Virus record (IMG/VR): IMGVR_UViG_2778261457_000003
Coordinates: 2,217-66,216 of that record
Origin: a virus
Taxonomy: Duplodnaviria > Heunggongvirae > Uroviricota > Caudoviricetes
Direction: 5' to 3' (one strand)
DNA: 64,000 bases
The notes under the pieces: generated by a model
What the model saw: only the letters and a program-made list of their open reading frames with translations
The model's database searches: none
Told to the model about the DNA's origin: nothing
Part shown: piece by piece, positions 30,928 through 33,184 of the stretch
How the letters are laid out: every line of letters starts with the position of its first letter
Position numbering within the stretch: position 1 is the first letter of the stretch
Position numbers and translations under genes: made by a program

Positions 30928-31009
30928 TGATTTTTAAAACAGAGAAAGTGAAAATAAAAACATGCCGCAAGGCGCGGCATGTTTCCAATCAATCACAGGA
31001 GCTGAAAAT

Positions 31010-31096
31010 ATGAACACGGCATTCAAAATCATTATGGCCGCGATCTATTTCTGGCTGTTCTCTATCACTTTTGGCGGCATCGTCGCGCATGGGTAA
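31010..31096 (+). CDS. small hydrophobic membrane peptide (28 aa)
   Basis: MNTAFKIIMAAIYFWLFSITFGGIVAHG with good RBS (acaggagctgaaaatATG); below ORF-track cutoff. Confidence 0.35.
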   Translation: MNTAFKIIMAAIYFWLFSITFGGIVAHG

Positions 31097-31105
31097 GGGG
31101 GATGC

Positions 31106-32035
31106 ATGAAAGGCGAAGTGAAAGAGCGCGGCATGATTTTCAACGATGAGATGGTCCGGGCCATCCTCGAAGGAAGGAAAACGCAGACGCGGCGGATAAT
31201 GAAAAATCAGCCTGCGGAAGTTGGTCCAGAAGCACCAGTGATGGTTAGAAAAATTGGTGCAGGTTTTCAGTGGTACGGGGCTGATGGTGTAAGCAGTGTT
31301 TTCAATTGCCCATTTGGTATCGTCGGCGATCGAATTTGGGTTCGTGAAACATGGGCGATATTAGGCAATGAGGATGGTTGCAGTGTGGACTGGAACGACA
31401 ACCTTTGTCGTGGCGATGAGAAGAACGCAGCAAGGATTTATCGGGCCAGTTGCGAGCAAAAACCTGGTGATTACGGCTTATGGTCGATACCCGATGATGC
31501 CGACTGGAAACCTCACACTGTGAATGAAAAGTTTGATGGTGGGTGGCGTCCATCAATTCACATGCCGCGATGGGCATCACGCATTCTGTTGGAAATTACC
31601 AACGTGCGCGTTGAACGGTTGAACGATATCAGCGAATGCGATGCAAGGGATGAGGGCGTTCCGCCTGCTGGAAGTTTGCTTCCTGATCACCCGGGAACAT
31701 TCCTTACTCCCAAGGGGGATTTCGCAATGGCCAAGGTTGCGTTCCAGCGCCTGTGGGAATCCATCTACGGCGAAGAAAGCTGGAGTGCTAATCCCTGGGT
31801 TACGAGGCTGGCAACTATCCGGACATTCCGGATAGTTCGGTGCCAGCGAAAGGAAAGGGCGTCCCCGGTGAACGTATCCGAATTAAGCCGCATGTTTATC
31901 GCGAACTGGTTAACCGCCTCCACGATACAGCGGTCAAGTGTGCTGGCACCCAGCAATTACGAGAAAGAATTAGCCGTGTTTTGGGCGACGTTATTACGCC
32001 AGATCATCATAAACAAGCCGAGAAAAGTGACCTAG
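31106..32035 (+). CDS. hypothetical protein (309-aa frame; C-terminal ~65 codons overlap the next ORF in another frame)
   Basis: conserved-looking N-terminal 240 aa followed by low-complexity tail that overlaps ORF 31840-32175. Confidence 0.45.
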   Translation: MKGEVKERGMIFNDEMVRAILEGRKTQTRRIMKNQPAEVGPEAPVMVRKIGAGFQWYGADGVSSVFNCPFGIVGDRIWVRETWAILGNEDGCSVDWNDNLCRGDEKNAARIYRASCEQKPGDYGLWSIPDDADWKPHTVNEKFDGGWRPSIHMPRWASRILLEITNVRVERLNDISECDARDEGVPPAGSLLPDHPGTFLTPKGDFAMAKVAFQRLWESIYGEESWSANPWVTRLATIRTFRIVRCQRKERASPVNVSELSRMFIANWLTASTIQRSSVLAPSNYEKELAVFWATLLRQIIINKPRKVT

Positions 32036-32175
32036 AAAGGTGTCACCTTGAGGCGGCATTAAACATTAAGCCGGGGCATACGCTTGGCATTATCGATGCT
32101 CTGTTGGTTCATAAGATGGCCATGGCTTTATTGCCGTTGGTGGATGCTGGCGATACAAGCGAGGGTGAAGTATGA
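31840..32175 (+). CDS. hypothetical protein (111 aa)
   Basis: ORF with ATGA overlap to the following gene; overlaps 3' end of preceding ORF. Confidence 0.35.
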   Translation: MPAKGKGVPGERIRIKPHVYRELVNRLHDTAVKCAGTQQLRERISRVLGDVITPDHHKQAEKSDLERCHLEAALNIKPGHTLGIIDALLVHKMAMALLPLVDAGDTSEGEV

Positions 32176-32534
32176 GAGTTGCAGATCACATCAAACACCT
32201 TGAAAGAATTATCGAAAACGGTGAACTCTTAAGAGATCAGATGAGACGCACGGCAGAAGTCAGAGAGGCGATAATCCGCAGTCAGGCTGGTAAATTAAAG
32301 CAATTGTCAGAGATTAACGCGCTATACAAGAACAGACGTAACCGGGCGGCGCTGCGGCTTCAGAAAGCACGTAATGAAATTAAATTGGTGGAGGCAAAAC
32401 TGAAAAAACAGATTCAGCGTTACGATCAGCAAGATGCTTTTTATGCCGCCATCAAGGCGGCTGCTAATGAAATAGGCATCTGGAAGTTGCTGGTGGAGAA
32501 AGCAAAGACGAAGTTAAATGCCAACGAAAGCTGA
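32172..32534 (+). CDS. hypothetical coiled-coil protein (120 aa)
   Basis: charged heptad-like sequence; translationally coupled start. Confidence 0.45.
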   Translation: MRVADHIKHLERIIENGELLRDQMRRTAEVREAIIRSQAGKLKQLSEINALYKNRRNRAALRLQKARNEIKLVEAKLKKQIQRYDQQDAFYAAIKAAANEIGIWKLLVEKAKTKLNANES

Positions 32535-32611
32535 ACTACAGGTACCCACCAGCACATACAGAAAATGATTGTTTCCACATCAAGGAGATTTTAATGTTTC
32601 ACTGAAACATT

Positions 32612-32747
32612 AAGTAAGCCAGTGCATAATTCCATTTTTTACTGACCTTAAAAGCAAAATCAAAACGATGATGAGGATAATAGCCAGAATCTGGCTAATA
32701 ACAGGCGCATCTAAAAATGCACTCAGGAACTGAAAAAAAGCAGTCAT
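32612..32747 (-). CDS. candidate small hydrophobic membrane peptide (45 aa)
   Basis: MTAFFQFLSAFLDAPVISQILAIILIIVLILLLRSVKNGIMHWLT in an otherwise ORF-poor AT-rich 650-bp gap; weak RBS. Confidence 0.25.
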
Positions 32748-33184
32748 TAAGGTGGTTCCTTGTCAAATGTAAAGGAGCACTTGCTCACGTTGACGTAGAA
32801 ACCCAACCCTTATATAGTTGGATTCGGTGAAAGAAAGTCGTTAACGTGAGCTTACGGCACATGTTTTCGGAACAACATCAGGGAACGGCTAATTCCTTGA
32901 TGCGGGTGGGGTCTGTAATGCAGACCCTATCTATTAACGTCATGATTGCATCTCAAATTTTCTCCTTATCTTCATTAATCAAAATTCATTTCATTTGTGA
33001 AGCATCACAATATTTAGAAAATGGCCCTCTTGCAAGTGCATAACTTTGTGGATAAATCAGGAAGAAAAAAGTTGATTCTGCGCACGGCAAGGCAGATAAG
33101 CTGTGCACAAAAATCAATGGGAGAAGAAAAAAAATTAAAAGTTACTTTGCTGGTTAAATAATAGTCGTTACTCAATTATTCTGG

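Follow-up and report, generated by a model that had tools for sequence, protein, structure and literature searches.

Two candidate membrane-peptide genes at the borders of the pmgT-pmgV cargo segment of phage P1

Two short open reading frames (ORFs), each predicting a hydrophobic membrane peptide, lie on either side of pmgT, pmgU and pmgV (31106-32534) in a 64,000-nucleotide stretch of Caudoviricetes DNA, positions 2,217 to 66,216 of IMG/VR record IMGVR_UViG_2778261457_000003. This whole stretch is called the window here, and coordinates are those of the window unless another record is named. Between 30400 and 33500 it is 99.9% identical to phage P1 (NC_005856), in which the record coordinate equals the window coordinate + 53382. 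ORF28 (31010-31096, + strand) follows pap (30405-30911), a HAD/PNKP-phosphatase gene (Pfam PF25109), and ORF45 (32610-32747 including the stop codon, - strand) lies in the interval 32540-33180, after which the P1 record continues with the late promoter LPhot, hot (33185-33448) and lxr. The original prediction, made from the letters alone, had proposed both ORFs as small membrane-peptide genes missed by standard annotation. Neither is present in NC_005856 or in the older record M95666, so the omission is real for the P1 reference. However, the annotation of the P1-like element SJ46 includes both, and on some plasmids the Prokaryotic Genome Annotation Pipeline (PGAP) lists, as hypothetical proteins, ORF45 (WP_000123562.1) and a longer form of ORF28 (WP_001312275.1).

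ORF28 encodes a predicted 28-residue peptide with a single membrane helix, MNTAFKIIMAAIYFWLFSITFGGIVAHG, whose grand average of hydropathy (GRAVY) is 1.30, with 2.10 in the best segment. A Shine-Dalgarno sequence, AGGAG (30997-31001, + strand), stands 8 nt before the ATG, and the TAA stop codon overlaps the ribosome site of pmgT (TAAGGGGGATGCATG). The P1 record places the C1 repressor operator OpmgT, formerly Op88 (AATTGCTCTAATAAATC, 30911-30927, + strand), over the stop codon of pap, with two predicted promoters beside it; binding of C1 at Op88 is taken from the literature cited in the GenBank record. P1pmgT, a predicted sigma-70 promoter of that record (30927-30955, + strand), has the -35 sequence TTGATT and the -10 sequence GAAAAT separated by a 17-nt spacer, and the PpmgT transcript would start near 30962. 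A perfect 11-bp hairpin follows pap (AAACATGCCGC/GCGGCATGTTT, 30958-30968 and 30974-30984, + strand). All the parts named in the original prediction, the strong ribosome site, the hairpin and the HAD-like gene before it, were therefore found in place.

The conservation of ORF28 was assessed in 99 P1-like contigs from IMG/VR. The reading frame was intact in 97 of them, and approximately 9 synonymous and 10 non-synonymous events could be distinguished across the sample. Three different insertions or deletions (indels) occurred in the 50 nt upstream, and none within the 28 codons. The GGAG of the ribosome site was kept in all variants and in the orthologue carried by diverged Salmonella P1-like plasmids. 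In these plasmids the upstream order was that of P1, namely operator core, -35, -10, hairpin, CAATCAATCA, GGAG and ATG; the operator core (ATTGCTCTAATAAAT) lay at an equal distance from ORF28, the -35 TTGATT was identical, and the -10 was AAGAAT at equal spacing. In codons 1-25, 29 of the 75 bases differed (39%) and 14 of 25 residues were identical, most of the others being exchanged for similar hydrophobic or small residues with the membrane helix kept. The proportions of synonymous and non-synonymous differences between P1 and Salmonella (pS 0.835, pN 0.263) made this the best of the six frames, the other five having pN/pS ratios of ~0.45 to 2.9. Within the Salmonella lineage the helix region showed three synonymous differences and no non-synonymous one.

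On these comparisons, ORF28 very probably encodes a genuine membrane peptide. The 44-codon version annotated by PGAP, with its ATG at 30962, was rejected; it has no ribosome site, and its frame is broken by the three different indels seen in relatives. No family match was found for ORF28 in Pfam, NCBIfam and PHROG searches. By the arrangement of its signals, ORF28 is the predicted first cistron of the C1-repressed (Op88) operon and should therefore be made once C1 repression lifts. Its mRNA appears to begin at a 5' stem-loop, and its translation may also help ribosomes to load onto the following gene, which in P1 is pmgT.

The hairpin upstream of ORF28 can be read on either strand. In the 99 contigs the stem was retained while the loop varied, and a C-to-T variant gives a G.U pair on the + strand. 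The Salmonella hairpin at the matching position differs in sequence (AGGCCAC/GTGGCCT) and has no T-run on either side. Since the position is kept, the sequence is not and the T-run is missing in Salmonella, the structure is probably the 5' stem-loop (30958-30984) of the PpmgT mRNA. Read leftward, the same site is terminator-like (30955-30987, - strand), with a 15-pair stem that includes 6 GC pairs and is followed by TTTTTATTTTCAC; its stem is the longest and most GC-rich of three such sites in 30800-33600. In relatives of the hsd type, described below, hsdR converges on this site, and the hairpin probably ends leftward transcription, that of the hsd operon in those relatives and any read-through from ORF45 in P1.

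The possibility of an antisense RNA against ORF28 that ends at 30987-30955 was also considered. Reading by eye, no credible minus-strand promoter was seen in or after ORF28, and the Salmonella hairpin lacks the T-run, so this candidate was rejected. A weak match to GcvB near ORF28 is merely the terminator hairpin. The original prediction had compared both peptides with type I toxin-antitoxin loci. For ORF28 the comparison does not apply, because no antisense promoter was found and because the gene would be under transcriptional control by C1 at Op88. It resembles instead the small upstream cistrons of phage early operons, in being first, apparently translationally coupled, repressor-controlled and limited to a single helix. 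It differs from them in having no homologous family and in staying when the downstream cargo changes or is absent.

ORF45 encodes a predicted 45-residue single-pass membrane peptide, MTAFFQFLSAFLDAPVISQILAIILIIVLILLLRSVKNGIMHWLT, with a GRAVY of 1.62 and 3.08 in the best 19-residue segment; the original prediction gave 32612 for its end, where the ORF with its stop codon reaches 32610. The interval in which it lies is AT-rich as originally described (GC 0.35-0.43, against ~0.45-0.56 in the flanks). Four further ORFs of 43-65 codons overlap the interval, and a length of 45 codons is unremarkable here; ORF45 was singled out because of its hydrophobicity and conservation, not its length. It was found only in P1-like elements, where it forms three sequence classes: class a, P1; class b, P7 and SJ46; and class c, exemplified by CP057430. 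Amino-acid identity to P1 was 96% in class b and 58-60% in class c. The three classes agree in a length of exactly 45 codons, in the start (ATG) and stop (TAA) codons and in a ribosome site with GGA (32756-32761, - strand), which reads AAGGAA in P1 and P7 and GAGGA in class c. Replacements were mainly hydrophobic-for-hydrophobic, with a few at polar positions. At 22% nucleotide divergence there was no internal indel, and three fell within 60 nt of the ORF (at 32757, 32591-92 and 32573-76). ORF45 is thus probably a real gene as well, by the pattern of its conservation. The original interpretation is partly supported; its proposal that both ORFs are membrane-peptide genes has strong support in the case of ORF28 and moderate support in that of ORF45.

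A perfect 11+1+11 palindrome, TTAATGTTTCA-c-TGAAACATTAA (32591-32613), includes the stop codon of ORF45. By estimate, ~1.5e-4 such palindromes would be expected by chance in 650 bp. In class c the outer 7-8 bp are kept (TTAATRTC/GAYATTAA), with a G.U pair on the ORF45 strand. The palindrome could form a hairpin at the 3' end of the ORF45 mRNA, or a dimeric protein could bind it. Within the coding sequence there is also an inverted repeat of 11 nt (32678-32700; TAATAGCCAGA/TCTGGCTAATA), 91% complementary with a 1-nt spacer and partly kept in class c.

The original prediction regarded the interval as an ORF-poor gap. It is not featureless, as it contains a host-derived promoter that had already been marked, as a leftward "nrdA-like promoter" with a dnaA box (33016-33071), in M95666, a deposit of the early 1990s. 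This nrdA-type promoter (33007-33055, - strand) comprises the -35 TTGCAA (33035-33030), the -10 TATTGT (33012-33007) and two DnaA boxes, TTATCCACA (33055-33047) and TTATGCACT (33043-33035). The DnaA boxes and the -35 are invariant across all classes and E. coli, and the -10 follows the pattern TAYTGT at 17 nt. The surrounding sequence, 33017-33131, is 82.6% identical over 115 bp to the ypaB locus of E. coli, directly upstream of nrdA, and nrdA has there the orientation that ORF45 has here. All 5,426 E. coli genomes that were searched gave a match to 33017-33131, in almost every case at this chromosomal locus. The P7/SJ46 version is nearer to E. coli, at ~95% by reading of the alignment.

Both DnaA boxes, the -35 and the orientation toward the downstream gene are shared with the E. 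coli nrdAB promoter. The homology ends near the -10, and the region transcribed in P1 is unrelated to nrdA. The two NrdR boxes of the nrdA promoter are not recognisably kept in the P1 copy, as judged by eye only. On this homology, the P1 element is a predicted copy of the host nrdAB promoter. It lies ~250 nt upstream of ORF45, and its leftward transcript would start near 33000, giving ORF45 a leader from ~33000 to 32748.

Inside this leader is a near-consensus sigma-70 promoter that points the other way, convergent with the promoter of ORF45. Annotated as "PupfN" (32790-32818, + strand), it has the sequence TTGACG-17-TATAGT and looks strong and constitutive; its hexamers match the consensus at 10 of 12 positions, and only three sites in the 64-kb window, this one included, have at most two mismatches. 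Neither hexamer varies among the 18 distinct variants, and the two convergent promoters are ~175 bp apart. The + strand transcript is predicted to fold into a structured RNA of ~110 nt with three stem-loops (~32824 to 32935/32940, both ends being estimates), fully complementary to the leader of ORF45. The fold favours the + strand, with -43.2 kcal/mol (z -5.0) compared to -30.0 kcal/mol (z -2.85) for the minus strand over the same span. The consensus fold has 35 pairs, of which 8 are G.U, and the other strand would have A.C mismatches at those positions. Changes between variants include one compensatory pair and two pairs with one-sided compatible changes. The compensatory change (T:A to C:G at 32924/32912, in class c) falls in stem-loop 3, a possible weak terminator (GGGTCTG/CAGACCC followed by TATCTATT; 32909-32927, + strand), and all three substitutions in stem-loop 2 fall in its loop. 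Identity between P1 and class c reaches 90-97% over 32790-32968, which forms an island between flanks of 67-83%. Over 32784-32872 only 3 of 89 positions differ (~96.5% identity), compared to 77.5% identity for ORF45.

Further elements were found in the leader. A consensus ribosome site, TAAGGAG, with a mini-ORF (32940-32968, - strand) is located ~50 nt into it. The mini-ORF reads ATG-CAA-TCA-TGA in P1 and ATG-TAA in class c, owing to a C to T change at 32948. Apart from that base the site is invariant, and it could act as a start-stop element or in ribosome standby. Two longer leader ORFs on the ORF45 strand, of 21 and 25 codons, were rejected as their substitutions are nearly all non-synonymous and carry no coding signal. 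A 12-mer in stem-loop 2, GGCTAATTCCTT (32887-32898), is identical to the + strand over the ribosome site of lxr (34028-34039) and could pair with AAGGAAUUAGCC before the lxr AUG. This candidate was dropped; such a match is at chance level in 64 kb, and in class c there is no co-variation and 8 nt remain.

The P1 record lists three + strand ORFs of "unknown protein function" across the same interval, upfM (32717-32830), upfN (32846-33043) and upfO (33021-33161). In class c, upfM is absent and upfN meets a stop after 9 codons, while in P7/SJ46 upfN has a different start and length. For the same reasons upfN was rejected as the product of the rightward promoter. In diverged relatives upfO is shortened. 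Its product is 65% identical over 40 residues to E. coli YpaB, whose ORF overlies the nrdA regulatory region, and upfO was probably acquired together with the promoter, as a by-product and not as a separate phage gene. The three ORFs are, judging from these comparisons, probably not genes, and the original prediction that ORF45 is the only plausible coding feature of the interval stands, with the upf ORFs lost, shortened or frame-shifted in diverged relatives.

The segment between the two peptide ORFs is subject to replacement. Eight hypervariable regions have been described in P1-like phage-plasmids, and the stretch between pmgT and humD is among them (PMC9603915). In about a quarter of the elements compared, a convergent hsdR replaces pmgT, and homology between the pmgT type and the hsd type stops directly after the ORF28 stop codon, at TAAGGGG. 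In class c and related elements an operon of hsdM, hsdS and hsdR takes the place of pmgT-pmgU-pmgV (2501-5135 in the class c plasmids; 1753-3681 in a related element). This type I restriction-modification operon is read in the direction of ORF45, and its end converges on ORF28. The ORF45 module is retained in P7 and SJ46, which lack hot, and in the three classes ORF45 is downstream of, and in the same orientation as, a LexA-controlled lxr or lxr-like gene. From this arrangement, ORF45 and ORF28 appear to be the fixed ends of a swappable cargo slot. That ORF28 stays when the cargo changes, or when hsdR leaves it with no downstream gene, argues for a role of its own.

Traces of ORF28 were also present outside the P1-like elements, as 324 matches on IncF plasmids with a footprint of residues 2-28. 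In the one copy that was examined, on a large IncF resistance plasmid (pMS6192A-NDM, 2940-3175), the ORF28 remnant is cut at codon 3 by IS1 and lies next to a type I restriction hsdR. Given the common footprint, all of the IncF matches were treated as remnants. They look like the trace of an hsd cassette that moved from a P1-like element into IncF plasmids.

Within the cargo of P1 itself, pmgT (31106-32035) and pmgU (31840-32175) overlap by 196 nt in different frames. BLAST matches from two sets of relatives split at ~31800 of the window (query ~1401), and PmgT matches its PHROG no further than residue 234 of 309. This suggests that the C-terminal ~75 residues of P1 PmgT arise by reading through a mosaic junction and are not native sequence. 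On the other side of the ORF45 module, hot and lxr are convergent, with 6 nt between their stop codons (33448-33455) and no terminator-like structure. When SOS induces lxr, its transcription would cross hot in antisense and continue in the direction of the nrdA-type promoter and ORF45.

The sequences, their pattern of conservation, the nrdA promoter homology and the strand-biased fold were observed directly; both transcripts of the ORF45 module, the translation of ORF45 and its antisense control are inferred from them, and any toxicity would be a further inference. In the proposed mechanism the nrdA-type promoter would fire leftward to produce a leader of ~250 nt followed by ORF45. PupfN would fire rightward inside the leader to give the folded RNA of ~110 nt, which by its perfect complementarity would pair with the leader and hold ORF45 down through cleavage of the duplex, transcriptional interference or a block of translation. 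The strength of the sense promoter would be set by replication status, sensed via DnaA. Antisense control appears to be the most likely mechanism for ORF45. Taken together, a real C1-controlled gene in ORF28 and a bidirectional module with an antisense RNA in ORF45, at the borders of a cargo segment, make up the account that we favour, tentatively and with something short of even confidence.

Comparison with known systems bears on how far the type I analogy may be taken. Both peptides are below 60 residues and have one membrane helix, as is typical of the small hydrophobic peptides of type I toxin-antitoxin systems. By analogy, a type I architecture is plausible for ORF45 only, where a conserved, structured and apparently non-coding stretch with a convergent promoter was found; ORF28, with no antisense partner found and its place in the C1/Op88 operon, does not share it. 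Like the toxins of hok/sok and ldrD/rdlD, ORF45 is a short single-helix hydrophobic peptide behind a long leader, with a strong convergent promoter in the leader that would make a structured RNA complementary to the leader upstream of the ribosome site; P1 is moreover a low-copy plasmid as a prophage. In contrast to these systems, ORF45 has no sequence or covariance match to Hok, Ldr, Sok or Rdl, no demonstrated coupled leader ORF, and a sense promoter that appears to be a captured host nrdAB promoter. It would also resemble tisB/istR-1 and dinQ/agrB in being an inner-membrane peptide of ~30-45 residues behind a promoter that responds to DNA or replication stress. However, its control would be by DnaA boxes and not by a proximal LexA box, its predicted antisense RNA overlaps the leader in cis and is not divergently encoded, and there is no sequence similarity.

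Searches with profiles and covariance models gave no match to the known type I families (Hok/Sok, Ldr/Rdl, TisB/IstR, Ibs/Sib, ShoB/OhsC, Zor/Orz, DinQ/AgrB), and membership of any of them was rejected. Pfam and NCBIfam searches with both peptides at E values up to 10 returned only chance matches to membrane segments. An apparent likeness of the ORF45 N-terminus to Ldr toxins found no support in either database and was dropped. Nothing above threshold came from Rfam searches of this region and of ORF28 at E values of 10 or less, the noise including GcvB (19 bits) and BsrG (15 bits). A doubtful further reading is that ORF45, together with the rightward RNA, makes up a new type I toxin-antitoxin module, or a stress effector, that belongs to no known family, with ORF28 as a second, C1-gated membrane effector of the lytic switch.

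Several observations weigh against the favoured account. The ratio of non-synonymous to synonymous substitution rates (dN/dS) of ORF45 is 0.45, while one antisense frame has 0.24, and the comparison amounts effectively to one independent split, P1/P7 against class c. Among 1.84 billion representative proteins no relative of ORF45 was found beyond the P1-like elements, only frame-shifted copies, and scans of viral, genome and metagenome sequences returned only the three classes and some frame-shifted copies. The GG of its ribosome site is predicted to be mostly paired in the three classes, with differing partners; a conserved long-range pairing that hides the site was rejected on that ground. 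Three predicted pairs of the folded RNA are broken in class c, and stem-loop 3, with a U-tract that is interrupted and in part belongs to the stem, makes a poor intrinsic terminator. The island of identity in the leader could stem from recent recombination in a mosaic region and not from selection. Finally, the genes around the region are dispensable for P1 lytic growth (PMC10695390), which is not an argument against them, yet gives no phenotype.

The main alternative explanation of the rightward promoter is that 32790-32818 serves hot in lysogeny and early growth, with the folded stretch as the long 5' untranslated region of hot, perhaps an attenuator, and ORF45 as an untranslated chance ORF on the opposite strand. 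Expression of hot has been described in lysogeny, in early lytic growth and late (Chikova & Schaaper 2007, as cited in PMC7556043), yet only a late promoter is documented; a + strand promoter upstream, if active in lysogens, would account for the lysogen expression given there. Read-through of the weak stem-loop 3 toward hot (33185) is also likely, and the dN/dS of ORF45 is not decisive. However, in P7 and SJ46 the promoter, folded stretch and ORF45 are all retained with no hot downstream, the nrdA-type promoter faces ORF45 and not hot, and ORF45 retains its length, ribosome site and hydrophobicity at 22% divergence with indels only outside. This explanation is possible, though less likely, and a role of the promoter for hot could coexist with an antisense role.

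A different reading accepts ORF45 as a genuine membrane protein and drops the toxin. ORF45 would then be an accessory small membrane protein of lysogens, acting in modulation of a membrane protein, in exclusion or in the response to envelope or replication stress, and any antisense transcription would only tune its level. The characterised small membrane proteins of enterobacteria are, as a matter of general knowledge, mostly regulators and not toxins, the promoter of ORF45 is of a host type and regulated, and in P1 an established addiction system, phd/doc, lies 2 kb from here. A marginal match to phrog_1184 (E 0.056), a phage family of unknown function, points the same way. Set against this, a cis-antisense layout is more typical of toxin control, and the reading is considered unlikely. 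It is very unlikely that neither ORF is functional and that both are part of AT-rich junctions flanking a recombination hot-spot, their conservation reflecting recent ancestry and horizontal exchange. The hypervariability of the pmgT-humD segment, the mosaic identity along the region, its dispensability for lytic growth and the orphan status of both peptides would suit such an origin, but ORF28 shows constraint at the protein level across 39% nucleotide divergence, the cargo boundaries fall just outside both ORFs, and the fold has a compensatory change and a strong strand bias.

The novelty of the locus is modest, as these are orphan micro-genes of a familiar kind and the captured nrdA promoter was already annotated in M95666. 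Few phages have been annotated as thoroughly as P1, and still its reference lacks two ORFs, one clearly and one probably conserved, and lists three, upfM, upfN and upfO, that fail the same comparison. If the reading of ORF28 is correct, a membrane micro-protein would be added to the C1 regulon, one that stays in place while restriction systems or other genes are swapped behind it. The ORF45 module, if correctly read, would represent the capture by a phage of a host cell-cycle promoter with its DnaA boxes, driving a membrane peptide under antisense control. Were it in addition a toxin module, a membrane-active peptide would be coupled to the host signal of replication initiation and deoxynucleotide (dNTP) stress, and could punish failed replication or plasmid loss, or answer replication stress alongside the SOS genes lxr and humD. 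Both ORFs would also show exactly where a hypervariable cargo site begins and ends in P1-like phage-plasmids, elements that are increasingly found with resistance genes.

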